32,000 nucleotides of DNA from Thermodesulfobacteriota bacterium (GCA_026625185.1 CP113000.1:2952651-2984650); one strand, 5' to 3'. Positions 1-20,052 are shown, counted from the stretch's first letter. Notes: generated from the letters alone by a model not told the origin. Translations and numbers: made by a program.

Positions 1-2321
1 CCGGTAGCTAAGATTACCACGCCGTGAGCTATTTCCTCTTCTTTACCCGGCGTGCGAATCCGGGTTTTAAACTTACCAACAAAGCCGGACAACTCTTCTA
101 TCTCGGCTTCAGTAAAGATTTTAATCTTCGGGTGTCCTTTTACCTTATCGATAAGATTTTCAAGGAATGACTTTGGGTCCTGCCCGTCAAGGGTATAGAA
201 TATGTTCCGGAGATTCCCCCCCAGTTCTTTTTCTTTTTCAATCAAGTAAGCATCAAAACCCTGCTCCGCCAGCGAGAGGGCCGCAGTCATCCCCGATACA
301 CCCCCACCAATAATGAGAGCAGATTGGTTTATGTCCATCAGGATCTCATGGATTGGTTCTAACCGGGTGGCTCGAGCCACCGCCATCCTGACCAAGTCAT
401 TAGCTTTTTCTGTGGCTTGCTTCGGGTTAGCAGCATGTACCCAGGAACACTGGTCACGGATATTAGCCATCTCAAAGAGGTACTTGTTGAGTCCGGCTTC
501 CCGAAGAGTATCCTGAAAAAGTGGCTCATGTGTGCGCGGGGAGCAAGAAGCCACAACCACGCGGTTCAATTGATGTTCCTTGAGGGCATTGATGATCTTA
601 AGCTGAGTGTCCGTGGAGCACGTATAAAGATTCTCTTCAGCGTAAGCAACAAAGGGAAGGGTTTTAGCATAGTCGGCAACCGAAGGAACATCAACCACCC
701 GAGCAATGTTGGTCCCGCAGCGGCATACGAATACCCCCACTCGCGGCTCCTCTTTGCTAATGTCCCTCTCTTGCGGATAGGTTTTCTCCCGAACCAAGCT
801 TCCCCGCACCTCTGATAACAGCTCCCCGGCAAGAGCTGCAGCGCTGCTGGACCCCATCACGGTCTCCGGGATATCCATGGGCGCTTCATAAGCACCCGCT
901 ACGTAAATTCCCGGTCGGGAAGTCTGATTAGGGGTGAATGTCTGGGTTTGACAGAATCCAAACCGGTTAACGTTAATTCCGATCATTTTAGCCAGCTCAA
1001 CAATCTCAGGATGAGGAACCAGTCCTACGGATAGGACTACGATATCAAACTCTTCCTCTTTGATCTCTCCGTTGTCGAGCGTATACGTGAGAAGGAGGTT
1101 TCCGCTCTGCTGAAGTTCTTTTATCCCCGATATAATCCCTTTGACATAACGAACCCCATAATTATTTTTGGCCGACTCGTAATAAAATTCAAAACCTTTT
1201 CCAAATGCCCGAATATCATTGTAAAAAATACTTGCCTCCAGCCCCGGCACATGATCAACCGCCATAATGGCTTCCTTGGTGGCATACATACAGCATACGG
1301 AGGAACAGTATTCATTTCCGCACAAGCTATCCCTCGAACCAACACACTGGATCCAAGCTATTTTTTTCGGTTCCTTATGATCCGAGGGTCTGATCACATG
1401 ACTCTGGTAAGGACCAGAGGATGAGAGAACTCGTTCAAATTGGATACTGGTCAGTACATTTTTCATCCGACCATGACCATATTCGTCCTTCAGTTGAGGA
1501 TTAAACTTTTCAAATCCTGGAGTAAGAATAATAGCCCCTACATCTACTTCATATATTTCGTCTTCCTGTTTATATTTAATAGCTTTAGCCTCACAGAAGC
1601 TCTCACACGCTTTACATGCATAATTTAAAAAATGCATACATGTCGTGCGATCAATAACCGGAGTTTTTGGTACTGCCTGGGGAAATGGTGAATAGATAGA
1701 TGGCCGCGAAACCAATCCCTCATCAAAAACAGAACTAATAGGTAGTGGTTTATTTTTGGAAAATTTTTCAAGATTAATAGCCCCAGTAGGGCAAATCATC
1801 TCACATGCTCCACAGGTGACACATATAGAGGAGTGCTCTCCGAATGGTGGAGAGACTATCCGGCTGGAACCGCGGTTTATAAAATTGATTGCGCCCACCC
1901 CCATAAGTTCCTGGCATACACGTACGCAGAGCCCGCATAGTACACACTTCTCCTCGTTTGGCTGAAAACGCTCATATCTTGATCTATCTATTCCAATTTC
2001 TTCAGCCAATTCCTTTATCTTAGGAACATCAGGACAACGCAATAGAAGTAATTCTATAACAAGTTTTCTTGCCTTGATTACCCGGTCCGAATTAGTTTTT
2101 ACTTCAAGTCCTTCTTCAACAACATAGGAGCAAGATGCGGATAGACCCTTTCGTGGACCACCCACAATCTCAACTACACATAGCCTGCAAGCTCCTTGAG
2201 GAGATAATGCCTTATAATAACAAAGGGTTGGGATCTTAATACGCAGCTTTTCTGCTGCTTGTAAGATTGTTGTACCCTCTTCTACCTCAAGCTTTTTACC
2301 GTCAATTGTTATATTAACCAT
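1..2321 (-). CDS. Multidomain Fe-S flavoprotein, partial (3' end off window). A NuoG/HydA-N-type [2Fe-2S] plus ferredoxin-like module is fused to the C-terminal portion of an HdrA FAD domain, followed by a second HdrA-like unit.
   Basis: Not in the ORF track, because there is no stop inside the window. Manual reverse-complement translation from the ATG at 2321-2319 gives MVNITIDGKKLEVEEGTTILQAAEKLRIKIPTLCYYKALSPQGACRLCVV (2Fe-2S, NuoG N-terminus type), then CVLCGLCVRVC and CVTCGACEMICPTGA cluster motifs. HdrA hallmarks follow: SIYSPFPQAVP, WIQCVGSRDSLCGNEYCSSVCCMYATKEA, DIRAFGKGFE. Next come VGVFVCRCGTNIARVVD, VVVASCSPRTHEPLF and ANIRDQCSWVH (HdrA N-domain type), and a second Rossmann motif ALIIGGGVSGMTAALSLAEQG. 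The frame is in register (2321-1343 is a multiple of 3) and must stay open to position 1; otherwise the track would have listed it. Confidence 0.85.
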   Translation of the reverse strand, partial: MVNITIDGKKLEVEEGTTILQAAEKLRIKIPTLCYYKALSPQGACRLCVVEIVGGPRKGLSASCSYVVEEGLEVKTNSDRVIKARKLVIELLLLRCPDVPKIKELAEEIGIDRSRYERFQPNEEKCVLCGLCVRVCQELMGVGAINFINRGSSRIVSPPFGEHSSICVTCGACEMICPTGAINLEKFSKNKPLPISSVFDEGLVSRPSIYSPFPQAVPKTPVIDRTTCMHFLNYACKACESFCEAKAIKYKQEDEIYEVDVGAIILTPGFEKFNPQLKDEYGHGRMKNVLTSIQFERVLSSSGPYQSHVIRPSDHKEPKKIAWIQCVGSRDSLCGNEYCSSVCCMYATKEAIMAVDHVPGLEASIFYNDIRAFGKGFEFYYESAKNNYGVRYVKGIISGIKELQQSGNLLLTYTLDNGEIKEEEFDIVVLSVGLVPHPEIVELAKMIGINVNRFGFCQTQTFTPNQTSRPGIYVAGAYEAPMDIPETVMGSSSAAALAGELLSEVRGSLVREKTYPQERDISKEEPRVGVFVCRCGTNIARVVDVPSVADYAKTLPFVAYAEENLYTCSTDTQLKIINALKEHQLNRVVVASCSPRTHEPLFQDTLREAGLNKYLFEMANIRDQCSWVHAANPKQATEKANDLVRMAVARATRLEPIHEILMDINQSALIIGGGVSGMTAALSLAEQGFDAYLIEKEKELGGNLRNIFYTLDGQDPKSFLENLIDKVKGHPKIKIFTEAEIEELSGFVGKFKTRIRTPGKEEEIAHGVVILAT

Positions 2322-2356
2322 GCGTTTCAACCCCATTTTTACTGCCTCAAGCTCAT

Positions 2357-4267
2357 CTACTTAACCATGATAGCGTTGGCTGGACAAGCTTCCCTACAAA
2401 GTCCACAATGGATACATTCGGTATAAACTATTTTGTGCGGCCTTTTTTTATCACCAGTAACCGCATTGGCTGGACAGTTCTTAAGGCATAGGCCACAACC
2501 ATTGCATTCGTCAGGATTGATCCAATATTCAAACAACCCCTTGCATACACCCGCCGGACACCTCTTATTTTTGATATGTTCTTCATATTCTTCCCGGAAG
2601 TAGCGAATAGTAGTTAATACTGGGTTCGGAGCAGTTCCTCCTAAAGCACACAAAGCGGAATCGATAATGATTTTGCTCATATCTTCTAAAAGTTCGATGT
2701 CGCCTTCCTTTCCACGGCCTTCGGTAATATCCATAAGAACCTCGAACATCCTCTTGGTACCTTCCCGGCAGGGTGTACATTTTCCACAAGACTCGTCTTT
2801 GGTAAAGGCGAGAAAATATTTTGCAACATTGACCATACAGGCAGTTTCGTCCATCACCACCATACCGCCTGATCCCATAATGGAACCAACCTCAGCCAAT
2901 TTATCGTAGTCAACCGGCAAATCCATAAGTGAATTCGGTATGCAGCCTCCAGAAGGGCCACCTGTCTGCACCGCCTTCAATTTTCTTTTGCCGGGAACTC
3001 CCCCTCCGATATCAAAAACCAATTCATTGAGGGTCATGCCCATAGGAACCTCTATCAAACCAGTGGTCTTAACATTTCCTACCATAGAAAAGATCATGGT
3101 TCCCTTACTCTTTTCCGTTCCAATTTCTGAGAACCAATCCGCACCACGGCTAATGATCAGTGGAATATTTGCCCAGGTTTTTACGTTGTTAATATTAGTA
3201 GGCTTACCCCACAGCCCCATCTGGGCAGGGAAAGGCGGACGCGGTCTGGGCTCGCCGGTAGTCCCTTCTATGGAGGCTATCAAAGCTGTTTCTTCACCAC
3301 ATACAAATGCCCCGGATCCACGTTCTATGGAAATATCAAAGTCGAAGCCAGAGCCAAGAATATTATTCCCCAGAAGCCCAAATTCACACGCCTGGCTCAA
3401 TGCCAGGATGAGTTTCTCGATTGCAAGGGGGTATTCGGCACGAACGTATATAATTCCATGCTGGGCGCCAATTGCATAAGCCCCGATAATCATTCCTTCT
3501 ATTACGAGATGAGGATTGCCCTCAAGGATGCTTCTATCCATATATGCACCCGGATCGCCCTCATCAGCATTACATATCACATACTTGGGGTCTCCCTTTG
3601 CTTCTCGAGCGAAACTCCATTTCCGCCCCGTCGGGAATCCAGCCCCTCCTCTACCTCTGATACCCGATCTCACAACTTCGTCAATAACCTTGTCCGGAGA
3701 AAGTTCTCCGAGCGCCTTAAACAGACCAAGGTATCCACCTGATGCAAAGTATTCCTCAATCTTATCCGGGTCTATGATTCCGCAATTTTGGAGCACCCTT
3801 TTATGTTGTTTCCTAAAAAACGGAATATCTTGATAAAATTGAACCTTCTCAAGTTCTTGAGGGAGGCCGTTCAGTTTGTATTTGTAGGTGATGTTTTCAA
3901 TTAGGTTGGGTTCCTCTTCAATTTTGCAAAGGGTATATTTAGGAATTATTTTACCCTCAGCAAGGGCCGAAATAATCTCTCGAGCTTTCTGAGTATCAAT
4001 TTGCTGATAAACTATTTTGGGCCATCCGAATTTCAAGATGTTAACCAAAGGCTCTTTTTGACAGATACCCATGCACCCGGTGGGAGTCACAATTATATTC
4101 AATCCTCGAGAACTAACTTCGTTACGGATCGCCTCTATAACCTCATCAGCGCCCGAAGCTCTGCCGCATGTGGCCATACCAATGGTCACTTTGGTTTCTG
4201 GTGGATAAATTGATTTAAGACCTTTTTCTTTGGCCTCAGAGAAATCTTTTTTGGCAGTAAGATGCAT
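2357..4267 (-). CDS. NuoF/HydB-like NADH-binding FMN Fe-S flavoprotein, with an N-terminal thioredoxin-like [2Fe-2S] domain and a C-terminal 2x[4Fe-4S] ferredoxin domain.
   Basis: 636-aa ORF with an ATG start and GAGGGG RBS. GIRGRGGAGFPTGRKW and CNADEGDPGA are NuoF FMN/NADH motifs, and ESCGKCTPCREG is the NuoF 4Fe-4S motif. The N-terminus has ATCGRASGA...GCMGICQKEP. The C-terminus has CNGCGLCLKNCP and CIHCGLCREACP. Confidence 0.9.
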   Translation of the reverse strand: MHLTAKKDFSEAKEKGLKSIYPPETKVTIGMATCGRASGADEVIEAIRNEVSSRGLNIIVTPTGCMGICQKEPLVNILKFGWPKIVYQQIDTQKAREIISALAEGKIIPKYTLCKIEEEPNLIENITYKYKLNGLPQELEKVQFYQDIPFFRKQHKRVLQNCGIIDPDKIEEYFASGGYLGLFKALGELSPDKVIDEVVRSGIRGRGGAGFPTGRKWSFAREAKGDPKYVICNADEGDPGAYMDRSILEGNPHLVIEGMIIGAYAIGAQHGIIYVRAEYPLAIEKLILALSQACEFGLLGNNILGSGFDFDISIERGSGAFVCGEETALIASIEGTTGEPRPRPPFPAQMGLWGKPTNINNVKTWANIPLIISRGADWFSEIGTEKSKGTMIFSMVGNVKTTGLIEVPMGMTLNELVFDIGGGVPGKRKLKAVQTGGPSGGCIPNSLMDLPVDYDKLAEVGSIMGSGGMVVMDETACMVNVAKYFLAFTKDESCGKCTPCREGTKRMFEVLMDITEGRGKEGDIELLEDMSKIIIDSALCALGGTAPNPVLTTIRYFREEYEEHIKNKRCPAGVCKGLFEYWINPDECNGCGLCLKNCPANAVTGDKKRPHKIVYTECIHCGLCREACPANAIMVK

Positions 4268-4283
4268 ATCAGTTTTCCCCTCA

Positions 4284-5177
4284 TCAGTACTTCATTAGAA
4301 TATCCATAACGGTATTATGTTTTACTCGAGAATAGACCCGCTGGTCAACTTTAATTACCGGGCTGAGTGCGCAACACCCGATACAACGTACCATTTCCAA
4401 GCTAAATTTTTTATCCTCAGTTGTTTGGCTTGGCTTAATACCCAATTCGTCTTCTAATTTCTGTAATATCCTCTCTCCACCCCGGACATAGCAGGCCGTG
4501 CCTATACAAACACTAAGCATATGTCGTCCGCGAGGCTTTAAACTAAAAAAGGCATAAAAAGTGGCCACCCTAAGGATATGGGCCAGTGGAATAAAAAGCT
4601 TAAAAGATATGTAAGTAAGGATCGGAGGTGGCAAATAATTAAATCTTCTATTTATATCCTGGAGGACTTTAATTAAAGGGTTTTTGTTTTCTTTATATTG
4701 ATTTAAAATTTCATCAACAACTGTCTTCTCCTCTCCAGGCAGGACAGGTTCGGGCACCTTTATCGAATCAATATACGCCCGGTTTCTAACAAGACAATGA
4801 TTGGAACACTCGCCGCAACCTGTGCAAAGTGATTCGTCAACTGACCGGGCCCCCCTTTTGATTGAAACCCTAAAATTACCTTTTTCCCCTTTGACATCAG
4901 AGAGATCTGAATATGTAAGATTCTCAATATTGGGATGTTTTCCACATTCCACAAGCTTGGGAGAGATGGTGCACATAGAGCAGTCATTGGTGGGAAAGGT
5001 CTTATCTAGCTGTGCCATCACCCCCCCAATAGCTGGCATATGTTCTACCAGATACACTTTGAATCCCGCATTGGCCAAATCCAAAGAGGCCTGCATCCCT
5101 CCAATCCCGCCTCCCACAACCATTACCGCTCCAACTTTGTTTCCGTTGTCTTTATTTGTATTGGACTCGATTACCAT
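4284..5177 (-). CDS. Fusion protein: HdrA N-terminal FAD-binding fragment (about 135 aa) joined to a NuoE/HydC-like thioredoxin-fold [2Fe-2S] domain.
   Basis: 297-aa ORF with an ATG start and GAGGGAAA RBS. The N-terminal part reads VMVVGGGIGGMQASLDLANAGFKVYLVEHMPAIGGVMAQLDKTFPTNDCSMCTISPKLVE...CTGCGECSNHC (canonical HdrA N-terminal motifs). The C-terminal part reads VATFYAFFSLKPRGRHMLSVCIGTACYVRGG...RCIGCCALSPV (NuoE Cx4C...Cx3C pattern). Confidence 0.85.
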   Translation of the reverse strand: MVIESNTNKDNGNKVGAVMVVGGGIGGMQASLDLANAGFKVYLVEHMPAIGGVMAQLDKTFPTNDCSMCTISPKLVECGKHPNIENLTYSDLSDVKGEKGNFRVSIKRGARSVDESLCTGCGECSNHCLVRNRAYIDSIKVPEPVLPGEEKTVVDEILNQYKENKNPLIKVLQDINRRFNYLPPPILTYISFKLFIPLAHILRVATFYAFFSLKPRGRHMLSVCIGTACYVRGGERILQKLEDELGIKPSQTTEDKKFSLEMVRCIGCCALSPVIKVDQRVYSRVKHNTVMDILMKY

Positions 5178-5193: not shown

Positions 5194-6057
5194 TCACAAA
5201 CGTAATAATCCCTTTTCTTCAAGTAACCCACGGGGGTTTACGATATGCCGACCCAACCAAGAATCAATCCCGGATAGACCCATAGCCAGGCCCAAAAGTT
5301 CCGTGAAATAATAAACCGGAAGGTTGTAATTTTGTTGAAACACTTGGGCGGCCTCCGCTTCCCGGGTGTCGAGGTTAGCTTGACATAAAGGGCAGGCAGT
5401 TACAATACAATCTGCCCCAGCCTCCACGGCCATCAGAAAGAGCCGGTTAACCAAACGCCGAACTATATCAATCCGGGTAAGAGCCAAGCTCCCGCCACAG
5501 CAATCGGTTTTGAAGGACCACGGAATGGATTGAGCTCCTAACACCTCCATGAGCCTATCCATATTTTGAGGGTTTTCCGGATTCTTCGCATCAGTCATCT
5601 TAGGTGGACGAACGCTGAGGCATCCATAGTAACACGCTACCCGAAGACCATTAAGGGGCTTGGTAATCTTGTCTCTGATCTTCTTTAATAGTTCAGGATC
5701 ACAAAGATAATCCAAAAGATAATTTATTTTAATCCCCCCGGAATAGGTAAAGCCGAGATCAGGCTGAGAACCAGTTCCCTTCAACTTTTTCTCGGCAATT
5801 TTTAAGCGGACAAAACAGGCCGGGCAAGGCGTCACCATTTCGGTAGCTCCGATTTTTTCAGCTAATGCCAAGTTCCGACCCGGGAGTCCTATTGCCAGTG
5901 CCTCATTGGTAGTATGGCCTGAGCTAGCGCCGCAGCAGCTCCAATCGTCCAGATCTTCCAGCTGGATGTCTAAAATTTGACTAACCTCCTGAATCGACTC
6001 CCCATATTCCCGTCCGGTTCCATGGAGAGCGCATCCCGGATAAAAGCAGACCTTCAC
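5194..6057 (-). CDS. hdrB: Heterodisulfide reductase subunit B-like protein (two CCG domains).
   Basis: 287-aa ORF with a GTG start and GAGGT RBS. It contains FYPGCALHG, WSCCGASSGH, YYGCL and DCCGGS plus CPLCQANLD, the typical HdrB cysteine-rich CCG repeats. Confidence 0.85.
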   Translation of the reverse strand: MKVCFYPGCALHGTGREYGESIQEVSQILDIQLEDLDDWSCCGASSGHTTNEALAIGLPGRNLALAEKIGATEMVTPCPACFVRLKIAEKKLKGTGSQPDLGFTYSGGIKINYLLDYLCDPELLKKIRDKITKPLNGLRVACYYGCLSVRPPKMTDAKNPENPQNMDRLMEVLGAQSIPWSFKTDCCGGSLALTRIDIVRRLVNRLFLMAVEAGADCIVTACPLCQANLDTREAEAAQVFQQNYNLPVYYFTELLGLAMGLSGIDSWLGRHIVNPRGLLEEKGLLRL

Positions 6058-6063: not shown

Positions 6064-6753
6064 CTACCTCGATTTTGTTTTTTTAAAAATGTTCCTAACC
6101 TCTTTAACCCTTCGGATGGACTTAGGCAATAGAGGAAGCTTTCCCTTAGTCAACATGGCCCAGCCAAGTTTAAGATCATTCATCAGTTCCCCTTTAGCCA
6201 TCTTATCTTTAAAGTCTCCGCTTTTTAAAGCGTAGGTTTGAAGCATACCTAATTCATAAACCCGACCTCGCCTCCAAATTGAATCTAAAAAAACCTGATG
6301 AAAAATTGGAGCGTTACGCTCTTTGTTCACGGTTTTTTCTTGCACCGATAATTGCCGAAGAGTGTCCATTACATGGGCAATGTCAATGTCATTGGGACAT
6401 CGCGTAGTACAGGTCTGGCATGACGCGCAAACCCATGGGGTAGAGCTACCGAGAATTTCATCTCTGAGCCCCATTTTAATGGCATGCATCAACTGATTGG
6501 GAAGAAAGTCCATGGCGAAAGTGACCGGGCATCCATTGGAACACTTTCGGCACTGGTAACAGACAGAAACTTTTTCCCGGCTTAGGGATTCCACTTCCTT
6601 TAAAAAAAAAGGTTTGGGTTCAAACCAAGGTTTGTTTTCTGTCCGCAGTGGTTTGATTGCTAAACTATTGAACCCTCTGGATGAACTTTCATCTTCCGGT
6701 GGAAGATTCGTCTTTTGAGACTTTTCTTCCTCTAAGCTGGTTTGTTCAGACAT
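6064..6753 (-). CDS. hdrC: Heterodisulfide reductase subunit C-like protein (2x[4Fe-4S]) with an acidic N-terminal extension.
   Basis: Motifs CYQCRKCSNGCPV and CASCQTCTTRCPNDIDI. The track ORF starts at a TTG (6774). I prefer the ATG at 6753 (MSEQTS...), which has a GAGGA RBS 5 nt upstream. Confidence 0.8.
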   Translation of the reverse strand: MSEQTSLEEEKSQKTNLPPEDESSSRGFNSLAIKPLRTENKPWFEPKPFFLKEVESLSREKVSVCYQCRKCSNGCPVTFAMDFLPNQLMHAIKMGLRDEILGSSTPWVCASCQTCTTRCPNDIDIAHVMDTLRQLSVQEKTVNKERNAPIFHQVFLDSIWRRGRVYELGMLQTYALKSGDFKDKMAKGELMNDLKLGWAMLTKGKLPLLPKSIRRVKEVRNIFKKTKSR

Positions 6754-6841
6754 AAAAATCCTCGTCTCAGGCAAGAAACAATTCTTGTCTGTCTCTTGGG
6801 GAGAGGCTATTTAAAGGCTCGGTTTAAATTTTCCCGGAGGC

Positions 6842-7732
6842 TTAAACTTCAAGCCAGGAATGAGAGTAAAGATTTTTACCCATCAACACGCGAGCGGTTT
6901 TAGCATAGTGGAGTTCTTTTTCACTTAATGAAGCGAGTGAAACTTCTTCACCATCCATAATTCTCCAGACCAAATTGTAAATTTCAGGCAAGCCATCATT
7001 CGCTAATTGAGCAAGCTCACTATCAAAAGCATCAACGATGGCTGAATAAAGGGTCTCGTATCTGTTCAACATAATCATATAGGTCCGATTGAGGATTCCC
7101 CTTAAATGATCGGGCGTGCCATTGGAAATATTCGATAACCCCACCGTGGTCTTAGACCCCGGGGCGATATCAGCGATCATGCTCATAAATTCGGTACACG
7201 AAAGCACCTGATTGATTTCCACGCAAATCGGAGAGGCGATCGGATCAACGTAAATGTCTTCATTGACCACTCCCGCCTGATTGGCAGCATACACCAATTC
7301 CGTGGCCATCAAAGCTCTTTCATTGGTATCCCGCGGCATGCCTTCTTTTCCCCAGAGCAGTGCGATCATCTGGGCGTTATACTTGGTTACCATCGGCAAC
7401 ATGATCGCCATGCGTTCGGGCTGCAAGGAGATGGAATTGATGATTGGTCTCGCTTTGGTTACCGCCTTAAGACCCGCTTCCATGGCCACGGGATTGGTGG
7501 TATCTAAGGATAAAGGAAGATCTGATACTTCTTCAACCGTCTTGACCATCCATTCCATGAGCTGGTCACCCTCTTTTCGCGCTGGCCCTATATTGATGTC
7601 AAGAACTTGGGCTCCATTTTGCTGTTGTTTAATCGCCATCTCTTGAATCGGCTTGGGGTCACGACCCTTCATGGCGGGGCCTAAAGTTTTAGACATCACA
7701 TTAATGCTTTCGGCAATTCGCGTTATTTTCAT
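6842..7732 (-). CDS. acsE: Methyltetrahydrofolate:corrinoid/iron-sulfur protein methyltransferase (pterin-binding domain).
   Basis: 296-aa ORF with an ATG start and AGGAGG RBS. The pterin-binding fold sequence is INVMSKTLGPAM...AQVLDINIGPA...SLDTTNP...INSIS, and the gene sits next to acsC/acsB. Confidence 0.85.
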   Translation of the reverse strand: MKITRIAESINVMSKTLGPAMKGRDPKPIQEMAIKQQQNGAQVLDINIGPARKEGDQLMEWMVKTVEEVSDLPLSLDTTNPVAMEAGLKAVTKARPIINSISLQPERMAIMLPMVTKYNAQMIALLWGKEGMPRDTNERALMATELVYAANQAGVVNEDIYVDPIASPICVEINQVLSCTEFMSMIADIAPGSKTTVGLSNISNGTPDHLRGILNRTYMIMLNRYETLYSAIVDAFDSELAQLANDGLPEIYNLVWRIMDGEEVSLASLSEKELHYAKTARVLMGKNLYSHSWLEV

Positions 7733-7758
7733 GAACGATTCCTCCTTTTGTCCTTATT

Positions 7759-9099
7759 TTAGTGCCAAGTTTTTAAATAGGCCGGGATATGGGCGCCTTC
7801 TCTCGGGCCGATTTGGATTTCCCAATCAGGCAATTCTTCTTCTAACTCACCGCTGATGCTCGCCGCATAACCAGGGATAACTAATTTTCGATGTTTCACT
7901 TTATCCAAAATGCCGGATTTTTTTAAAAACAGGGCGATTCGGTCAGCGGAAAATTTTCCTGCGGCCCAGCTGGTTAAAACGGAAAGCCCCTCGGTATCGA
8001 GTACCAACAGCCAAGAAGGAACGCGCGAGTTTTCAACCTCACCCGAAACAATAAAATAGGTAAGCGAAAAGTTCGACGTAATCAGGACCGGGGAATTTTC
8101 CGTGGGTAAATTAATTTCATAAATTCCTTGGGAAGTAGCCATCGGCCGCTGAGGGTCAGTATAAATATTCATCCGTTGAACCAAAAGCGGAAAAAGACTT
8201 TCACCCTGCAGATCGGAAAGAACCATGATCCCCGCGTATTTAGAAACCATGGTGGAGGCAATCAAGCTTTCTTCCAACAAGTCTTTGCTCATCTCACACG
8301 GGAACGCAATGGTCGGAAAACCTAAAGCCCGAACTCCCCCGACTAAGGCTGCCCTTCGAATACTTACCTGGTCAGTAAATACTTTATTTAAGGCCCGGCT
8401 CCCGGAGTCAATCACTAAATCCTTAAGGCCCATCTCGGTTAGTTTCGTGGTTAACTCCATCACCTCATCAATATCTTTTCCTTTAACCGCTAACGGGAGG
8501 TTTTTTTCTTTCGCCAATTTCCCCAGTGCGTCTACATTTTCCTTGGTGGCCGCGTAAAGCAGAGGCCGAATCGGAGCCGCAATTTCAGAGGCGGCCTGCA
8601 GGTTTTCCGCTTTATCGCTCATCAGGATTATTTTTTTGATCCCCGCATCCATTACTTTTTTAATTAAACTCAAAAATTTATCCTTATTTCCCGAAGTGTT
8701 TTGCAGGGCAACAAGATCAGGTTTAAGAATAAGGCCAACGCGTTCATATTTCAATTCTTGAAATCTTTTTAAGCGTCCCTCCACATCGTCATCGTTCATG
8801 TCATCAGCAATCAATACCGCGATACCAGCGGGGTTCACGAAAGTTTTTTCATGCCGAAATTGAACTGTTTCTCCTCCGCATTTAAACACGTCATCCGAGC
8901 CAATTACCACCGGTCTGATCGGCGGCGCAGATGCTTCAGCAAGCTGCGCTTTAGCCTCATCAGAAACATAGGGACAACTCTCCAGCTCGGCCTGCCCGGC
9001 AGCCAACTTCATCGCAAACGCCAAACACGTGGGGACGCCACATTCAGCACAGTTGGTTTTGGGAAGGAGTTTAAAAATTTGAATTCCGGTTAAACCCAT
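7759..9099 (-). CDS. acsC: Corrinoid iron-sulfur protein, large subunit (CFeSP gamma, CdhE type).
   Basis: 446-aa ORF. The N-terminal [4Fe-4S] motif is KTNCAECGVPTCLAFAMKLAAGQ...CPY. ATG start with a GGAGG RBS. Confidence 0.9.
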   Translation of the reverse strand: MGLTGIQIFKLLPKTNCAECGVPTCLAFAMKLAAGQAELESCPYVSDEAKAQLAEASAPPIRPVVIGSDDVFKCGGETVQFRHEKTFVNPAGIAVLIADDMNDDDVEGRLKRFQELKYERVGLILKPDLVALQNTSGNKDKFLSLIKKVMDAGIKKIILMSDKAENLQAASEIAAPIRPLLYAATKENVDALGKLAKEKNLPLAVKGKDIDEVMELTTKLTEMGLKDLVIDSGSRALNKVFTDQVSIRRAALVGGVRALGFPTIAFPCEMSKDLLEESLIASTMVSKYAGIMVLSDLQGESLFPLLVQRMNIYTDPQRPMATSQGIYEINLPTENSPVLITSNFSLTYFIVSGEVENSRVPSWLLVLDTEGLSVLTSWAAGKFSADRIALFLKKSGILDKVKHRKLVIPGYAASISGELEEELPDWEIQIGPREGAHIPAYLKTWH

Positions 9100-9139
9100 G
9101 GGGTTCCTCCTTTCAGCTTCCTGGGGTAATTATTTCTTC

Positions 9140-11350
9140 TTAAACGTTCATAATCGATTCCATAGAAAGAGCGGGATGCCCTTTTTCTTTAAGCCAGGGA
9201 AGAATTTCTTCCTGCGTAATGCCTACGGTCTCATCAGCAATCATATCCGCGAAGTTTTCAATGCCAAGCTCTTTGGCGCGGGCATTTATTTTATCCCGCA
9301 AGGTTTCTTTCAGGGCTTTCGGGAGCCATACCAGTCGCTTAATACCCCCTTCAGCATTGATAAATTTTTTTGAGGTGATGTAATGTTTGCTGTGGCCCAC
9401 AAACCCGGGAGTCACTTTCCCGCCGCCTACCTGGCCGGCCAGCGAGGTGAATTTCATTCCGCAAGGAGTATCAATTGAACTATCCCGATCAACAGTCATA
9501 ACTCCATTACATTGATCCAACACCGCCGCGATACACTCAAAGCACCCGCATGAGGTCATCGGAGTAACCATAATGCTATACGCGCTTGCTTCAAGAACAT
9601 TGCCACGAGAAGCTCGAGCAAGAAAATCGTTTACCCCATTCCATTTTCCCAGACGGGCATCAATAACCTCACCTTTCTGGATGGGTTGATTGGGTCCGGT
9701 CGGATTAATTTCTTTAGAGGCTTTGCAATCAAGCCAGTTATATGCGCCGCACAGCCCGGTTCGCTCCGGAGTTACCACACACACATGGGAAGGAGCAAAT
9801 GACTGACAGAGGGTGCAGGAATAGTATGTTTCTTCAGTTTCATCGGTCATTCCTGCAATCCGTTCGTCGCGAATCGTAAAAGTATGCCGTGCCTTCTGGG
9901 TAAGTTCTTTAACCTTATCTTCTTCTGTGTAAATCTGAACCTGGACCTTATCCAGGATCGCGCCAAAATCTTTGTGGTACATGGAATGAAGAATCTTACC
10001 AAGATCTTTTAACGTAAATCCTTTCTCCACCGCCTGCTTGGCGATCCGAATCCAGGCGACATCCCGCTGTCCGATATGCATCAATCCCTGGGCATAGTTG
10101 ATAAGATGGTGGATCTGCCGTTCCAAAATCGGAAGAAAGTCCTCTTGCATCTGACGACCGGCAACCATGACATAAATACCAAGGGGAATACGACTTCCCG
10201 CCGGAACATCAGTAATGTCGGGACCAAAAAGCTCAACTTTTCCGTCTTCAACTTCATTCATGTTTTTCATCTCAGAAAATTCGGTCATCTGACTCCGGCC
10301 ACCACCGCATTCAAGATGAATATCGGCCCCCCGAACCCGCTCACCTTCAAAGGCCGCTCCATACGCAAGCGGAATAGGAACCTCAGTAACCGCAACTTTA
10401 AGACCCCGCACTTCGATTGCTTTCTGCACCATTTCCTCATAGGGAACATTGGAGATAACATGCTCATAGGTGCAAATCCCGGTGGGAAGAACTTCAGGAA
10501 TCGGGGTATCAGCAATAACCGGAAACCCATAATTAATCGCTCCGGCCGCATTTGCATACCACTCATCCGATACAAACCCCATCGCCAAAACAAAGGCGAA
10601 AATCCGGTCTTTATTGTAGATAAGCACCTTACGAAAATCTCCTGGTTTTGCCCCTCCAAAGGACATGGCAGCGCGAGTGGCAAAACCCAGCGCAAAAACC
10701 GCGGCATTCACATTGGGACCAAAAGAAACCAAACGGGTGTTCCACCCGATTTGCACCCCTGCCTTTACCAGCTGCTCAGACATGCGCACCCCATTATTAT
10801 CTGAACCCATAAACACATAGAGATTTTTCAGCTGGAGCTCATGGGCGATTTTTGCCGCAATCTCTTCGCTGGGCGGAGCTCCAAGAATAGCCGCAAACCC
10901 GGGAGCGGTTCCATCAACAAATTCCACTCCTCTTTTTCGCATAATCACATCATCAGCCGCTCCGAGCCAAATATTGTTGTCGGTAACCTCTTCACCGCGG
11001 AGATAAAAGTCGGGATGCTCAAGATAACGGATGGCTTCTTCAATTTCCTCGACCCACAGGGTAGCCATTCCCGCATCAAGTGCCGGAGCTAAATAGGGTA
11101 AATGGTGTTGTTCTTTAACTGCAGGGGGTAAAATTTCCCGGCAGCGCCTTAAGACCCGCTGGCAATCACCTAAAGTTTTGACCGGTATTCCGGTAATTCC
11201 ATAAATTATCGGAAGATAATAGGCAGTATCCGGAAACCCGATTTCCTGATTCGGTCCATACTTTTCAAGTACTTCCTTATATTTTTTTTCAACTCGAGTA
11301 ATAATTTTATGAGCGCCACGAATGGCAGCTGAAGCAATAATTTTGGACAC
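9140..11350 (-). CDS. acsB: Acetyl-CoA synthase catalytic subunit (ACS, A-cluster protein).
   Basis: 736-aa ORF with a GTG start and AAGGAGG RBS. It has the typical ACS N-terminus (IIASAAIRGAHKII...FPDTAYYLP) and the A-cluster region YYSCTLCQSFAPSHVCVVTPERTGLCGA...SCGCFEC. Confidence 0.92.
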   Translation of the reverse strand: MSKIIASAAIRGAHKIITRVEKKYKEVLEKYGPNQEIGFPDTAYYLPIIYGITGIPVKTLGDCQRVLRRCREILPPAVKEQHHLPYLAPALDAGMATLWVEEIEEAIRYLEHPDFYLRGEEVTDNNIWLGAADDVIMRKRGVEFVDGTAPGFAAILGAPPSEEIAAKIAHELQLKNLYVFMGSDNNGVRMSEQLVKAGVQIGWNTRLVSFGPNVNAAVFALGFATRAAMSFGGAKPGDFRKVLIYNKDRIFAFVLAMGFVSDEWYANAAGAINYGFPVIADTPIPEVLPTGICTYEHVISNVPYEEMVQKAIEVRGLKVAVTEVPIPLAYGAAFEGERVRGADIHLECGGGRSQMTEFSEMKNMNEVEDGKVELFGPDITDVPAGSRIPLGIYVMVAGRQMQEDFLPILERQIHHLINYAQGLMHIGQRDVAWIRIAKQAVEKGFTLKDLGKILHSMYHKDFGAILDKVQVQIYTEEDKVKELTQKARHTFTIRDERIAGMTDETEETYYSCTLCQSFAPSHVCVVTPERTGLCGAYNWLDCKASKEINPTGPNQPIQKGEVIDARLGKWNGVNDFLARASRGNVLEASAYSIMVTPMTSCGCFECIAAVLDQCNGVMTVDRDSSIDTPCGMKFTSLAGQVGGGKVTPGFVGHSKHYITSKKFINAEGGIKRLVWLPKALKETLRDKINARAKELGIENFADMIADETVGITQEEILPWLKEKGHPALSMESIMNV

Positions 11351-11393
11351 TGTAATTCCTCCTTATTTTTTGCTTAAAAAATTGACGTGCCTA

Positions 11394-13388
11394 TTAAACC
11401 GCTTCCAATTCACGCCTCATTGCCATATCATAAAGTACTCGCTCTCGAGCTTTATCGATTCCGAGTGCTTTCCGTTTTTTATCGATATGGGTTATCATCT
11501 TCTTTGCCATCTCGATGGGATCGGTGGCAAAATCCCACATTCCCCCTACTTCTTGTTCTAAGCCTTTGAACAAATACTCCGTTAATACGTCACACCCCAC
11601 AGTAGGAAAAGTGGTCCCAAAAATCGTGTAGACGCCGGAGGCAACAAAATACTGGCCAATGGCAACCGCCTTTTCACTCATCCACTCGGGGGCGCACCCG
11701 GCGGCCGGCAAATCACTGATGTCATCTCCCAAACCGCCTTCTTTCACTACCGCAGTGGCGGCTATGAGGATTCGGCTGTTATCAACGCACGACCCCATGT
11801 GAAGTACCGGCGGAATACCCACCGCTTCACACACCTCTGCCAACCCGCTGCCCGCATATTGTGCTGCGGCTTCGGGAAGAAGCAGTCCCGCTTTTCCACA
11901 GGCCATGGCCGAACATCCGGTGGAAAGAACAATGACGTCGTTTTTAATCAACTCTTTAATCAAGGTCAAGTGGGCTTGGTCATGAACGGTCCGCGCATTG
12001 TTGCACCCTACCACACCAGCGATGCCGCGAATTCTTCCCCCGATAATATTATCATTGAGAGGTTTGTAAGAAGCTCTAAACATCCCCCCCAAGAGATAAT
12101 TAATCGTCTCATGGGCAAAACCTACGACGGTATCACATTTTTGACCGGGTATTTTGATTTTACTCGTGCGTTTTGGAAAATTTTCAATTGCCGCTCTCAC
12201 AATCTCTTTAGCCGTCTCAAGGGGATTGTGCTCTTCAAATTGGATATGCCGCGCCCCGCTAATTTTAGCTTTCGGAGAGGTTGTTATAATTTCGGTATGA
12301 TAGCACTGGGCAACATCATGAATGGACTGCATTTCACACTGAACATCCACCACCATTGCGTCAATCACTCCGGTCACGATTGCAAGCTCTTGCTGAAGAA
12401 AGTTCCCTGCAATCGGTATCCCGTGACGCATCAAGATCTCATTAGCCGTACAGCACATACCGGCCAGGTTGATCCCTTTAGCTCCTTTCGATTTGGCAAA
12501 GGCGATCATGTCTGGCTCTTGGGTCGCCACCACCACCATTTCGGAAAGAAGCGGATCATGACCATGAACAATAATGTTGATCTCATCTTCTTTTAAAACC
12601 CCCAGGTTGATAGATCCTTTGATGGGCACAGGGGTCCCAAACAAAATATCCTGGAGTTCAGTAGCCAGCATAGAACCTCCCCATCCGTCAGCCAGGGCTG
12701 CTCGGCTTCCCTGGGCGATGAGGTTTTTGTAGTCTTGATCTACCCCCATATGGGTACGGTGCATAAGTTCAACGATTTCACGATCGATCCCTCTGGGAAT
12801 CAGGTCGTATTTGCGCCAGATTTCCTGACGTTTCAGAGGAGCGCGTTTCATCATCACCAGCCCCCCTTCCTGTTTTCCCCACTCGGCACCTGCCAGTTCA
12901 CCTACTTTAATCGCAATCTCTTCAATCTCCATATCCTCGATGTCAATGCCAAAATCCAAGGCAAGTTGCAAGAGCTTAGGCACGTCTTTTACTCCATATC
13001 CGGGAATTTCTCCTTTGGCTGCTAATAAAAATACTTCTGCCACTCCCCGGCCGTGATCAGAGTGGGAAGCTGACCCGCCGGCGATCATCCTCACAAAGTT
13101 CCGGGCAGTGATAGTCTCGATGGTAGCCCCGCACACCCCAACCCGTTTTTTTTCTTCCCCTTCAGCTTTCTTTTTGGGTGCCGGAAGCCGGCACGGTCCC
13201 ATCGCGCAGGTTCGGCAACAGCTTCCTTCCACCCCAATCGGACAGGGCTTCATGGCCTCAGCCCGGTCGAATATTAAACTCACCCCATCGGCTTTAGCCT
13301 TTTCGATCATCTCCTGGCTCGCTTCGCAAACCGTCAGCAGAGAATTAACTTTTTCTTCTTTTGTTTTTTTCATTTCGTCTGCCATCAT
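11394..13388 (-). CDS. acsA: Carbon monoxide dehydrogenase catalytic subunit (Ni-Fe CODH, ACS-associated).
   Basis: 664-aa ORF. The B/D-cluster region reads CPIGVEGSCCRTCAMGPCRL, and HGHDPLL, CCTANE and GSCVDNSR are CooS-type C-cluster ligand contexts. Tandem ATG ATG start after an AGGAGG RBS. Confidence 0.92.
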   Translation of the reverse strand: MMADEMKKTKEEKVNSLLTVCEASQEMIEKAKADGVSLIFDRAEAMKPCPIGVEGSCCRTCAMGPCRLPAPKKKAEGEEKKRVGVCGATIETITARNFVRMIAGGSASHSDHGRGVAEVFLLAAKGEIPGYGVKDVPKLLQLALDFGIDIEDMEIEEIAIKVGELAGAEWGKQEGGLVMMKRAPLKRQEIWRKYDLIPRGIDREIVELMHRTHMGVDQDYKNLIAQGSRAALADGWGGSMLATELQDILFGTPVPIKGSINLGVLKEDEINIIVHGHDPLLSEMVVVATQEPDMIAFAKSKGAKGINLAGMCCTANEILMRHGIPIAGNFLQQELAIVTGVIDAMVVDVQCEMQSIHDVAQCYHTEIITTSPKAKISGARHIQFEEHNPLETAKEIVRAAIENFPKRTSKIKIPGQKCDTVVGFAHETINYLLGGMFRASYKPLNDNIIGGRIRGIAGVVGCNNARTVHDQAHLTLIKELIKNDVIVLSTGCSAMACGKAGLLLPEAAAQYAGSGLAEVCEAVGIPPVLHMGSCVDNSRILIAATAVVKEGGLGDDISDLPAAGCAPEWMSEKAVAIGQYFVASGVYTIFGTTFPTVGCDVLTEYLFKGLEQEVGGMWDFATDPIEMAKKMITHIDKKRKALGIDKARERVLYDMAMRRELEAV

Positions 13389-13426
13389 TTACCTCCTAAA
13401 CTTTCATTGAGTAAAAAATTTACCCA

Positions 13427-14956
13427 TCAGGCCGGTGTTTTTCTTTTTTCACTACCATATACTTCGGCAGAATACCAGTAACGCAAGCCTGTCTTTAGAT
13501 ATTGAATCATTTCTTCCTTATCTCTCAGTTTTTGTCTCCAGTCTTCTTTCCTTTCGGGCGTTCCTGCTTCATAACTCGCACCCAAAAGCTCAACCTGTTT
13601 GCCGGAGAAATCCTGCTTCTTTTCTTTTTGATAATTAAATTCCCCAATATTATCATCCGGCGCTGCCCAGGAATCCAGAATTTTAACCGGGGGAACTTCT
13701 TTGGCTTTCTTTTTCTTTTTTTCTTTTACACCCGCTTCTTCCGAAACCACGGCAGGCTGGACTTCAGCCTTTTTAGCTTCCAAAAATGCGGAGAAGGTCT
13801 TCACCGCGTCGGGTGAGAGCGTTATTCCACCTTCTCCTTCCTCAGAAACCTTGACCAGCGCAAGCACATGGTCTGAGCCGACGGTCAAAGGAGCATTCAT
13901 GATTTTAGCAATATCAATATCAAGTTTAATTCCCCGGGGCAGGTTGGCAACCGCAGCAACCGCACCAGGAACAGCTTTTGAAACCTCTTTAGAAACCGCA
14001 ACCAACGCAGGTCGGGAAACTCCACTCATATCAGCAATATAGTTTCTCACCGACTCAATCGCTTTCGGATGACGCATTACCAAAATGTCAGCCCCGGCAA
14101 GCAATAACGTTACCGCGGTCATCGCTTCGAGAGTAACCCCTCGGTTTAAAGCTTTTCCCATGAGGGGATTATCTGCAAGTTTAGCTTCTTTGGTTTTCCA
14201 AACTTCATCCGCCAAATTAGAAATCATCGGAAACTGCAATTTTTCATCTTGCTGGGTAAGCGCGGCCTGACGGATCCGTTCCATAACCGAATAGCTGTAT
14301 TCAATCCCGTATCCGATAGCTCCGGTAGTGGGATCAATGAGAATATTTTCCGGCGGCACTCCCAGGTTGCCGAGTAAGATATTAAGCTGCTTCGCTAAGT
14401 TAATATCAATCGGAGAACTGGCGACTACCATATGGTTATAGGCAAGCGCTTGAGCGCCAATTTGTTTATGGTTTCCTTCTTGCACGGGTCCTAAAGCCAC
14501 CTTTTTACCTGAGCATGCCATGGCAACCTTGCGAAGCACTTCCGCATCTTTCTCCACGTTGGTTGATCCCCACACGATAAGCGGAATATCAATTGCTTCC
14601 AGCACTTGTTTGGCAGTTTCAGCAGCCTCATCAGCGCTTCGGTTGAGCCCATTGGGGTCAGTGCTTTTTAACCACAAGAATATGATATCAGCCTTATAAA
14701 CATCCTGGGCTTTTTTCGCCCACCCTACCGGATTTCCTAAAACATCTTTATAAGGCTCCAAGCAGGCGTCCGCCCATTCTTCAGGAGTAAAGTCCGGAAC
14801 CTGAATAGCTATCTTGGGTACATGAGGTATTTCCCCTTCAAAGGCGTAAAAGGGATACGAATCCCCCCCACCTACAATCACTTTTTTTCCGTTTTTTTCC
14901 AAGGTAATGGGACGAATGCTGCCAGTATAAGCCAGCGTCGGTATTTTAAAAGCCAT
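13427..14956 (-). CDS. acsD: Corrinoid iron-sulfur protein, small subunit (CFeSP delta, CdhD type), with a roughly 195-aa C-terminal extension.
   Basis: 509-aa ORF with an ATG start and GGGAGG RBS. Residues 1 to about 312 match the AcsD pattern (VGGGDSYPFYAFEG, SPIDINLAKQLNILL, DPTTGAIGYGIEYSYSVMERIR, LVMRHPKA). The remainder is an extra Lys/Glu-rich region. Confidence 0.85.
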   Translation of the reverse strand: MAFKIPTLAYTGSIRPITLEKNGKKVIVGGGDSYPFYAFEGEIPHVPKIAIQVPDFTPEEWADACLEPYKDVLGNPVGWAKKAQDVYKADIIFLWLKSTDPNGLNRSADEAAETAKQVLEAIDIPLIVWGSTNVEKDAEVLRKVAMACSGKKVALGPVQEGNHKQIGAQALAYNHMVVASSPIDINLAKQLNILLGNLGVPPENILIDPTTGAIGYGIEYSYSVMERIRQAALTQQDEKLQFPMISNLADEVWKTKEAKLADNPLMGKALNRGVTLEAMTAVTLLLAGADILVMRHPKAIESVRNYIADMSGVSRPALVAVSKEVSKAVPGAVAAVANLPRGIKLDIDIAKIMNAPLTVGSDHVLALVKVSEEGEGGITLSPDAVKTFSAFLEAKKAEVQPAVVSEEAGVKEKKKKKAKEVPPVKILDSWAAPDDNIGEFNYQKEKKQDFSGKQVELLGASYEAGTPERKEDWRQKLRDKEEMIQYLKTGLRYWYSAEVYGSEKRKTPA

Positions 14957-14977
14957 AATGCACCTCCCTAAGGATTC

Positions 14978-15865: not shown

Positions 15866-15883
15866 TGCCTTACCCTCCTCTTT

Positions 15884-16627: not shown

Positions 16628-16648
16628 ATCAACATACCTATCAAATGA

Positions 16649-18412: not shown

Positions 18413-18456
18413 AAGTATCCCTCCTCTTAGGTTAAAAAAAGTTTTAGTAAAAAAAA

Positions 18457-18700: not shown

Positions 18701-18750
18701 TCAGTCCCATTTAAAACAGGTTGACATCCTGGGCATAAAGAACAAATTCA

Positions 18751-18798
18751 AATTTTAAAAAAGTAAATCCCGTTAGAAGACTTTCTAACGGGATTTAC
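18751..18798 (-). terminator. Rho-independent terminator downstream of the PEGA lipoprotein gene.
   Basis: A perfect 16-bp stem (GTAAATCCCGTTAGAA at 18763-18778 pairing with TTCTAACGGGATTTAC at 18783-18798) with a 4-nt loop. On the minus strand it is followed immediately by TTTTTTAAAATT. Confidence 0.7.
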
Positions 18799-18860: not shown

Positions 18861-18889
18861 TAAACAAAAACAGTTTAATGCGACAAGTT

Positions 18890-20030: not shown

Positions 20031-20052
20031 CAAAAAAACAATTCCCGGTCAT

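Follow-up and report, generated by a model that had tools for sequence, protein, structure and literature searches.

HdrA has been described from several multi-subunit complexes. In the methanogen HdrABC-MvhAGD complex (5ODC, 8RVU) it is one chain that forms a homodimer, and two residues beside the flavin, E356 and K409 (M. thermolithotrophicus numbering), are used to separate bifurcating from non-bifurcating HdrA proteins (PMC9430772; PMC12054007). The Hdr-type methylene-tetrahydrofolate (methylene-THF) reductase of Moorella thermoacetica, MetFV-HdrCBA-MvhD, contains a 1487-aa tandem HdrA. In the N-terminal unit of this HdrA, an NAD(P)H-oxidising module lies between the two ferredoxin motifs and so breaks up the thioredoxin reductase-like (TrxR) domain; the C-terminal unit consists of an MvhD-like N-terminal domain, a TrxR domain and a C-terminal ferredoxin domain, with no inserted ferredoxin domain (PMC9430772). 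The HdrA of the Sporomusa enzyme is likewise reported as a tandem of two such units (PMC9430772), and Sporomusa-type HdrA has no interruption of this kind. Here a further arrangement is described: in a 32,000-nt stretch of DNA from a Thermodesulfobacteriota bacterium (GCA_026625185.1 CP113000.1:2952651-2984650; hereafter ‘the window’), two genes each encode a piece of the flavin adenine dinucleotide (FAD) domain that belongs to the first unit of a tandem HdrA, and a three-subunit module resembling NuoE, NuoF and the N-terminal part of NuoG (NuoG-N) is inserted between these pieces.

HdrA-type modules and HydBC/Bfu-type NADH/ferredoxin modules have also been found in one complex in class II benzoyl-CoA reductase (BCRII), the BamBCDEFGHI complex of Geobacter metallireducens, in which BamE is a fused HdrA dimer, BamD is HdrBC-like, BamF is MvhD-like with selenocysteine and BamGHI are of Bfu type (bioRxiv 10.64898/2026.04.10.717634; PMC9304861). 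According to the BCRII preprint of April 2026, these two bifurcation modules in a single complex had previously been unreported (bioRxiv 10.64898/2026.04.10.717634). An NAD(P)H module located at the inserted ferredoxin domain is known from type III archaeal HdrA and from HdrL of Desulfobacterium autotrophicum (PMC12054007; PMC2702500), and for type III HdrA it has been proposed that GltD turns the ferredoxin-reducing site into an entry for NADH (PMC12054007).

The locus described here shares with that of Moorella the genes hdrC, hdrB, tandem hdrA, mvhD, metV and metF, the Wood-Ljungdahl context and the organisation of both HdrA units. It differs in that a three-subunit HydCB/NuoEF plus NuoG-N module, carrying flavin mononucleotide (FMN) and ~7 iron-sulfur (Fe-S) clusters, replaces the single GltD, in that the host domain is split, and in that the insertion lies ~25 residues earlier, directly after ferredoxin motif 1 and ahead of FDxGL..PFPQAVP. 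In BCRII, by contrast, the modules are separate polypeptides linked via BamI and BamF, the HdrA FAD domains are unsplit and the output is the tungsten AOR-type BamBC, whereas the neighbours here are MetVF; neither the 32-kb window nor the flanks of L009, a metagenomic locus from the same population, yielded an AOR-type BamB or BamC gene. Type III HdrA and HdrL have a single-chain insertion of another flavoprotein family and an unsplit FAD domain. The methanogen complex shares the FAD domain (~50-60% identity), the Fe-S ligands, E356/K409 and the partners HdrB, HdrC and MvhD; besides the split, this bacterium is not expected to use CoM-S-S-CoB. Relative to the HydABC/Bfu family, whose solved members are matched over their full length by the BfuB- and BfuC-like subunits, the BfuC and BfuA equivalents here each carry, as a fusion, one half of an HdrA FAD domain. 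This split and fused HdrA-Bfu type is absent from the 2022 Bfu catalogue and its supplement (PMC9304861), and a literature search found no description of a split HdrA FAD domain fused to BfuC or BfuA; a mention in the HdrA review of Appel et al. 2021 is possible. The architecture is real, conserved and widespread, and whilst the split is apparently undescribed, it does not amount to a new principle.

An HdrA FAD domain encoded in two pieces

All genes of the region are found on the minus strand. The first piece is part of a fusion gene of 297 aa (4284..5177), in which profile and structure-sequence matches identify the first part of an HdrA FAD domain followed by a NuoE/HydC domain. The HdrA part (hereafter the N-part; aa 1-137, 4767..5177) has the Rossmann GxGxxG motif, DKTFPTNDCSMC and, of the inserted ferredoxin domain, the first half. 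Its aa 18-130/137 align with residues 146-258 of 5odc_A (E 5.8e-40) and residues 154-273 of 8rvu_a (E 5.3e-42) at ~60% identity. A nuoF-like gene follows 16 bases downstream of this open reading frame (ORF) and, 35 bases further, a large ORF starts at position 2321 and remains open for 773 codons up to the window edge (1..2321). The truncated gene is identical to P0001 (NCBI WAC07328.1), and the full protein has 1083 aa; selenocysteine read-through, which was considered for this ORF, is not needed, as the frame merely runs off the window edge. The second piece of the FAD domain (the C-part; aa 188-499 of the large protein, 825..1760) contains what remains of the inserted ferredoxin domain (its second half) and of the FAD domain, and aligns with residues 253-562 of 5odc_A (domain E 2.5e-76).

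The two pieces were compared with a solved HdrA in a MAFFT alignment of 5ODC HdrA, the N-part (aa 1-140) joined to aa 187-505 of the large protein, and the remainder of the large protein (aa 506-1083). The joined pieces were found to be colinear with HdrA residues 144-562, with no gap and no segment of the FAD domain present twice, and to retain E356, K409, C197/C200, the [4Fe-4S] ligands C386/399/403/404 and all eight ferredoxin cysteines. The inserted ferredoxin domain is itself distributed over the two chains: motif 1, CTGCGECSNHC (C118, C121, C124, C128; 4794..4826), which aligns to 5ODC C245/C248/C251/C255, is on the 297-aa protein, and motif 2 (C228-x7-C236-x2-C239-x3-C243; 1593..1640), which aligns to 5ODC C290/C293/C296/C300, is on the large protein. 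The sole duplicated element is the ferredoxin-type CxxCxxCxxxC, with copy 1 in the HdrA inserted ferredoxin domain and copy 2 in the NuoG-N-like domain. The true N-terminal domain of HdrA is absent from this first unit (unit 1). The Glu/Lys pair of bifurcating HdrA is represented in unit 1 by E296 and K349 (equivalent to E356 and K409), both present in 119/119 homologues of the large protein.

An interruption of an hdrA frame by a nuoE/nuoF/nuoG-N-like insertion had been proposed in an earlier reading of the DNA sequence (the sequence-only reading). The motifs it quoted, GGGIGG, DKTFPTNDCSMC, CTGCGECSNHC, PFPQAVP, CVGSRD..CC and CVTCGACEMICP, are all present, as is CxxCxxCxxxC at both junction ends, and the HdrA continuation does resume behind the NuoG-N-like module in the gene from 2321. 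Its description of the 297-aa protein as an HdrA N-terminus that switches to NuoE was right as to both components, but the HdrA component is the start of the FAD domain and not the true N-terminal domain. The downstream protein was said to have no GxGxxG motif ahead of PFPQAVP, and none stands there; a GGGVSG is found further on, at aa 672-677, belonging to a second HdrA unit (unit 2) that the sequence-only reading had not seen, the interrupted gene being the first unit of a tandem HdrA. That motif serves the complete unit 2, and the orphan half has no Rossmann beta-alpha-beta of its own. Nor is the N-terminal fragment an unrelated, self-sufficient domain, since it matches the HdrA FAD domain and is colinear with the downstream piece. 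The assembly of one FAD domain from two polypeptides is in keeping with this gapless tiling, but the unusual event that had been envisaged is not a one-off, the architecture being conserved across many phyla.

Very probably, a single complex results in which the two pieces together restore the FAD domain; unit 1 would be expected to bind FAD and may carry out flavin-based bifurcation. In ferredoxin folds of the clostridial 2x[4Fe-4S] type, each cluster is held by three cysteines of one motif and a fourth from the other motif. One FAD domain can apparently be built from two chains, probably stapled together by shared Fe-S clusters.

The second HdrA unit and the predicted structure of the large subunit

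Because the large protein continues into a second HdrA unit (aa 506-1083), its gene can be assigned to the tandem HdrA of the Moorella/Sporomusa/BamE type. Unit 2 opens with an MvhD-like 4-Cys domain, continues with an entire FAD domain and closes with a fully conserved 2x[4Fe-4S] domain (C1014-C1054); its start (aa 517-773, 3..773), including the MvhD-like domain and the Rossmann GGGVSG, is found in the window and the remainder lies past it. Residues 524-757 of the large protein align with residues 2-236 of 5odc_A (domain E 1.6e-66). The FAD domain of unit 2 (TrxR2) has its own GGGVSG and its own Glu/Lys pair, with E798 in 109/119 homologues (Asp in the other 10) and K840 in 118/119, and has no inserted ferredoxin domain. 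The FAD domain of HdrA is reportedly built from segments that flank the inserted ferredoxin domain, before and after, and this agrees with the lack of 5ODC residues 237-316 from unit 2 in the MAFFT alignment. A TrxR-like FAD domain, with GxGxxG and the matching C-terminal half, is present in both units, contiguous in unit 2 and by way of two genes in unit 1. The inserted 2x[4Fe-4S] ferredoxin domain is found in unit 1 only, which in turn has neither the N-terminal nor the C-terminal domain, and the full set of HdrA domains does not occur on any single polypeptide, as unit 2 is without the inserted domain and unit 1 is split. It was also considered whether, through a circular permutation, unit 2 could lend its GGGVSG to the orphan C-part; this is ruled out by the presence in unit 2 of a complete C-terminal half of its own.

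The structure of the large subunit was predicted alone from a 59-sequence alignment, with a mean predicted local distance difference test score (pLDDT) of 80.6 and a predicted template modelling score (pTM) of 0.74. Confidence was high across the orphan C-part and unit 2 and low at aa 118-182, a region made up of a cofactor-dependent Fe-S part and a linker. The top Foldseek matches of the model were the HdrA chains 8rvu_A and 5odc_A, with template modelling scores of 0.76-0.78 when normalised to the target.

The inserted NADH module

The second domain of the 297-aa protein (aa 150-297, 4287..4730) is NuoE/HydC/BfuC-like, and over aa 153-297 it matches the [2Fe-2S] thioredoxin-like domain PF01257 (E 4.4e-45) and HydC (8a6t_C, E 1.1e-39); it has the character of a BfuC [2Fe-2S] thioredoxin-like subunit, with C224, C229, C265 and C269 invariant. 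The nuoF/hydB/bfuB-like gene (2357..4267) encodes 636 aa with the domains of BfuB, namely a thioredoxin-like N-terminus, an FMN/NADH core and a C-terminal 2x[4Fe-4S] domain (Pfam Complex1_51K, NADH_4Fe-4S and Fer4 twice). Its aa 31-633 align with residues 12-594 of 7t2r_B, the BfuB of the NiFe-HydABCSL enzyme (E 5.8e-230), and other full-length matches are StnB (8oh5_B, E 1e-216), NfnB (9n5u_B, E 8.5e-215) and HydB (8a6t_B, E 1.1e-200), whereas complex I NuoF matches the core of the protein only (~1e-110). The large protein begins with a NuoG-N/HydA-N/BfuA-like Fe-S domain (aa 1-183, 1773..2321; PF13510, Fer4_7; 9mqx_A, E 2.6e-42) with motifs for one [2Fe-2S] and two [4Fe-4S] clusters and no motif for a His-ligated cluster, a set that resembles the reduced BfuA set of the Bfu clade containing Bam-Bfu (PMC9304861). 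Neither HdrA piece has a Fer4_20/GltD match in Pfam, and the NuoE-, NuoF- and NuoG-N-like genes occupy that region. By homology, the module is of the HydCB(A-N)/Bfu type rather than a respiratory NuoEFG, and would be expected to react with NAD(H) and ferredoxin simultaneously.

Authenticity and conservation

An artefact at one of the junctions had been a concern of the sequence-only reading. Three independent assemblies (L009, L010 and L011, from two JGI metagenomes and one Logan run) were found to be 100% identical to the window over 4-15 kb, with both junctions included. The large subunit has >119 full-length homologues at 52-65% identity, and its predicted cluster ligands are 100% conserved in 119 of them: C34/45/48/64, C126/129/132/136 and C167/170/173/177 of the NuoG-N-like domain (119/119), and C326/339/343/344 and the motif 2 cysteines of the C-part. 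The fusion of N-part and NuoE is represented by >120 homologous 90%-identity clusters of ~290 aa with the same layout, and in 20 diverse members G22/G24/G27, C66, C69, DKTFPTxDCxMC, the motif 1 cysteines and the four NuoE cysteines are invariant, with the ~20 residues joining the HdrA part and NuoE being variable. An assembly artefact or a pseudogene is contradicted by the identical independent assemblies and the invariant cofactor residues, and the architecture is under selection. At 50% identity the split large subunit is reduced to two or three representatives among several thousand tandem and single HdrA relatives, a count that measures diversity and not abundance.

Operon context

Upstream of the split gene are an hdrB-like gene with two CCG domains (5194..6057; PF02754 twice, E 1.9e-24) and an hdrC-like gene that encodes a 2x[4Fe-4S] ferredoxin subunit (6064..6774; Pfam Fer4_8/Fer4_17); tblastn mapping placed hdrC directly upstream of hdrB in every related locus surveyed. 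From its TTG start the predicted HdrC has an acidic, Ser-rich N-terminal extension of ~60 aa, and homologues align only from ~aa 50-70; the start is uncertain, as the source annotation begins 7 aa later (229 aa). Further upstream, on the same strand, the Wood-Ljungdahl genes fhs, cooC, folD, acsD, cooS, acsB, acsC and acsE were identified using Pfam (6842..18412).

Downstream of the large gene lie genes that fall outside the window itself and were seen in L009, which is 100% identical to the window in their overlap: mvhD, metV (PF12225), metF (PF02219) and a DUF3786 gene. Codon 67 of the mvhD gene (FlpD; L009:16146-16595) is an in-frame TGA where ..VAG[C]xxGxCH has its conserved Cys, and the gene was split by the source annotation into ORFs of 66 and 82 aa; with Cys substituted, the match to FlpD has an E value of 6.7e-45. 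This TGA probably encodes selenocysteine, which would match BamF and the MvhD proteins of D. autotrophicum. In L009 metV and metF are clustered with hdrC, hdrB, tandem hdrA and mvhD, as is characteristic of an Hdr-type methylene-THF reductase; relatives at 66% identity show the same order with metF, metV and mvhD, and metV/metF also flank the module in L006, L007, L014, L016, L017 and L026. The order hdrC-hdrB-[N-part(::)nuoE]-nuoF-[nuoG-N::C-part::unit 2]-mvhD is kept in all loci long enough to show it.

Other neighbours have been found in other lineages. In Phycisphaerae and one other locus the module adjoins mvhD and the small and large subunits of a [NiFe]-hydrogenase, and in Thermoplasmata the five-gene module adjoins an FrhB-like gene. 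A GltD/NfnB-like domain lengthens NuoF to 1022-1043 aa in L004/L005:4117-10004, L008, L020, L029 and L031, and the genes that accompany these loci are those of [NiFe]-hydrogenase subunits and not metVF. Between nuoF and the large gene, L004/L005 have as much as 4.3 kb of regulatory genes (DRTGG, CBS-HATPase and PHP). In the metagenome-assembled genome (MAG) of one member of the Thermoplasmata (L002:5247-7308), two tandem genes of the DUF1016/YhcG-like nuclease family lie between hdrB and the N-part-nuoE fusion.

Distribution and origin of the split

The wider family was surveyed by scanning one genome per GTDB species with N-part patterns, from which the best 80 species-level loci were considered, and by mapping thirteen query segments onto all 91 loci with tblastn. 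Alongside the canonical single HdrA, an unsplit tandem HdrA was found, in which the N-part is contiguous with the C-part; in the Sporomusa-type locus L080, for example, the segment for the N-part (A1N) is followed, with an 8-nt overlap, by that for the C-part (A1C), and the sequence is contiguous across the junction. In six loci of this unsplit layout (L040, L064, L065, L068, L080 and L084) mvhD-nuoE-nuoF-nuoG-N follow as separate genes in a bamEFGHI-like order. A third layout, the Moorella type, is a tandem HdrA whose two ferredoxin motifs are separated by ~1.5 kb of inserted sequence, identified by Pfam as GltD-type Fer4_20 plus Pyr_redox_2 in Desulfotruncus arcticus (L069); L039 and L079 are other homologues of this type. 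A variant has an insertion of a ~180-aa polyferredoxin that is partly like the NuoG-N 2x[4Fe-4S] segment, and may either be transitional to the split layout or have arisen by its collapse. This variant was seen in L049, L050 and L059 (e.g. L050:7965-11615) as a one-chain tandem HdrA with the insertion after motif 1, flanked by metF, hdrCB, mvhD and metVF.

The layout of the window was found in ~25 of the best 80 species-level loci. By record titles, it occurs in both bacterial and archaeal phyla, with Spirochaetes, Sedimentisphaerales, several Desulfobacterota, Melioribacter, Eubacteriales and Altiarchaeales, and also in Acidobacteriota, Latescibacterota, Thermoplasmata, Cloacimonadota and Dehalococcoidia. 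The orphan C-part is always accompanied by an N-part upstream where the contig is long enough. Two Dehalococcoidia (L001:7166-8050, L037:8001-8880) encode the N-part on an ORF of its own, ~143 aa long and apart from nuoE, with a stop and an immediate ATG in the same frame in L001 and nuoE in another frame in L037. Fusion to NuoE is therefore not required, and assembly in trans would be tolerated.

In another Thermoplasmata MAG (L032:214-1494 and downstream) the HdrA is not a tandem but a single unit, and nuoE-nuoF-nuoG-N split it at the position seen in the other split loci. This HdrA keeps the N-terminal domain, and its C-part groups with canonical HdrA in a neighbour-joining tree and by pairwise identities, which suggests a second origin of the split; as the tree was built without bootstrap support, its topology was not relied on and pairwise identities were used instead. 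Split proteins have a mean identity to each other of 53.5%; the split Acidobacteriota protein L027 is 86.5% identical over 874 aa to the GltD-type proteins of the related MAGs L078 and L054. Identity in these comparisons is 83-86.5% over a scaffold of ~870 aa, but 72% in the N-part, and reflects either a recent module replacement or gene conversion between paralogues. The insertion points differ, being directly after motif 1 in the split layout and after the PFPQAVP segment in the GltD layout, so that either the inter-motif loop has accepted NAD(P)H modules more than once, or paralogues of the two layouts recombine.

The proposed complex and its electron path

On balance, and going by homology and gene order, the gene products appear to make up a single flavo-iron-sulfur complex of several subunits, namely a variant of the Hdr-type methylene-THF reductase (MetFV-HdrCBA-MvhD) with a Bfu-type NADH module. 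As encoded, the three-subunit HydCBA-N/Bfu-type module is inserted between the halves of the inserted ferredoxin domain of unit 1 and, since the module is multi-subunit, the FAD domain of unit 1 is made as two polypeptides, the N-part joined to the N-terminus of NuoE and the C-part to the C-terminus of NuoG-N. Both parts would reassemble in trans into a single FAD site. Each [4Fe-4S] cluster of the inserted ferredoxin domain would probably be held by three cysteines of one chain and one of the other, and these staples would fix the Bfu module at this domain. NADH would be oxidised at the FMN of the NuoF-like subunit, and electrons would pass from the NuoG-N clusters through the adjacent inserted-ferredoxin clusters to the unit-1 FAD, with its bifurcating Glu/Lys signature, and then via HdrC/HdrB and MetV/MetF to methylene-THF, with ferredoxin as the coupled low-potential partner; in acetate oxidation the reaction would reverse. 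BamG, the NuoE homologue of BCRII, touches the NuoG-N homologue BamI with its N-terminal helix bundle (bioRxiv 10.64898/2026.04.10.717634), which makes the proposed geometry plausible. The direct path from NuoG-N through the inserted ferredoxin domain to the unit-1 FAD, which is put forward tentatively, parallels the proposal made for GltD-inserted type III HdrA (PMC12054007) and the NADH-oxidising role of Moorella HdrA (PMC9430772).

Several points weigh against this proposal. Adjacency of the NuoG-N and inserted-ferredoxin clusters is not forced, because the tethers are ~20 residues long and variable or of low confidence (pLDDT <50, aa 178-182). The inserted ferredoxin domain of canonical HdrA is a low-potential exit and not an entry, and in BCRII the Bfu module feeds HdrA via the C-terminal ferredoxin domain and MvhD (bioRxiv 10.64898/2026.04.10.717634), both of which are retained here. 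Methylene-THF reductase can be only one partner of the module, because [NiFe]-hydrogenase and FrhB-like genes are its neighbours in other lineages. The second electron acceptor is unknown even for the Moorella Hdr-type enzyme (PMC9430772), and there was no cultured host among the loci fetched.

The main alternative is a wiring like that of BCRII, which is possible but less likely than the direct path; the flexibility of the tethers and the retention of MvhD and of the C-terminal ferredoxin domain suit it equally well. Electrons would then pass from NuoG-N to the C-terminal ferredoxin domain of unit 2, to the [2Fe-2S] cluster of MvhD (with its Sec/Cys redox site) and to the unit-1 FAD, whilst the split inserted ferredoxin domain would remain a low-potential exit to ferredoxin and the fusions would act only as tethers that fix stoichiometry and proximity. 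This is the path described in the preprint, from BamI through the BamE C-terminal ferredoxin domain and BamF to the bifurcating FAD (bioRxiv 10.64898/2026.04.10.717634), and it is consistent with the retention of an MvhD with an in-frame TGA at a conserved Cys, with the full conservation of C1014-C1054, with the apparent flexibility of the tethers and with the six loci in which an unsplit tandem HdrA is followed by mvhD-nuoE-nuoF-nuoG-N. It is less easily reconciled with the site of the insertion, which lies between the same two motifs as GltD in Moorella-type and type III HdrA; in type III HdrA a structure prediction put GltD beside the inserted ferredoxin clusters, with ferredoxin access blocked (PMC12054007), and ferredoxin docking there would presumably be impeded by a module attached midway along the exit domain.

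It is improbable that the NuoEF-like module is a plain NADH dehydrogenase as in complex I, which would replace GltD with no ferredoxin coupling at the Bfu core. Moorella-type HdrA does take NADH electrons from a simple GltD domain (PMC9430772), and the 86.5% identity of the scaffold between split and GltD forms suggests that the inputs are functionally interchangeable; however, the NuoF-like protein keeps at its N-terminus the thioredoxin-like domain and at its C-terminus the 2x[4Fe-4S] domain that mark HydB/BfuB as against complex I NuoF (PMC9304861), and its full-length matches to bifurcating enzymes (~1e-200 to 1e-230) contrast with core-only matches at ~1e-110. An assembly chimera, or an hdrA gene broken by a nuoEFG cassette with a non-functional N fragment and separate Hdr and NuoEFG complexes, is favoured only by the separate listing of HdrABC-MvhD and NuoEFG complexes in published MAG analyses, and is highly improbable given three other identical assemblies, two in-frame fusions, cofactor residues invariant in >119 homologues down to 52% identity, occurrence in many phyla and an orphan C-part that is never without its N-part on sufficiently long contigs.

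With the Hdr-type reductase carrying a Bfu-type module still preferred, a stronger version of it can be stated, namely a hard-wired double bifurcation in which the Bfu FMN/Fe-S site and the HdrA FAD site would be joined via a ferredoxin domain with two-chain clusters, coupling the oxidation of NADH, the reduction or oxidation of ferredoxin and the reduction of methylene-THF. This version is speculative and, as it stands, unlikely. Since Bfu-type relatives react with NAD(H) and ferredoxin, the coupling of NADH, ferredoxin and methylene-THF is a concrete and testable proposal.

Implications

The variant would wire NADH into the methylene-THF reductase step, and so bears on energy coupling there. 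Gene fusions reveal which subunits must adjoin, and thereby provide structural information on a class of enzymes that is hard to purify. MAG annotations in which HdrABC-MvhD and NuoEFG are given as separate complexes can be wrong at these loci and, as the layout is found in Desulfobacterota, Dehalococcoidia, Planctomycetota, Acidobacteriota, Spirochaetota, Thermoplasmata, Altiarchaeales and others, this matters for models of carbon and electron flow in anoxic sediments. Were the double bifurcation true, the energy coupling that has long been looked for at the methylene-THF reductase step would be accounted for in many Wood-Ljungdahl organisms not yet in culture, and the insertion site would have served repeatedly as a general socket for different NAD(P)H modules (GltD, NuoEFG-like, polyferredoxin).

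Other features of the window

A promoter and terminator scan gave nothing above shuffled expectation, and an Rfam search returned zero matches. Within the Wood-Ljungdahl cluster, an AcsD/CdhD-like ORF of 509 aa (13427-14956) has a CdhD Pfam match that spans aa 18-296 only, its C-terminal ~200 aa being without a Pfam match at E<=1e-5. Between this cluster and rnhB, trmD and ffh lies a stretch (18413-20052) of low G+C content, 0.36 compared with ~0.45 elsewhere, which contains a 178-aa PEGA-domain ORF (18890-19426) and long non-coding gaps.

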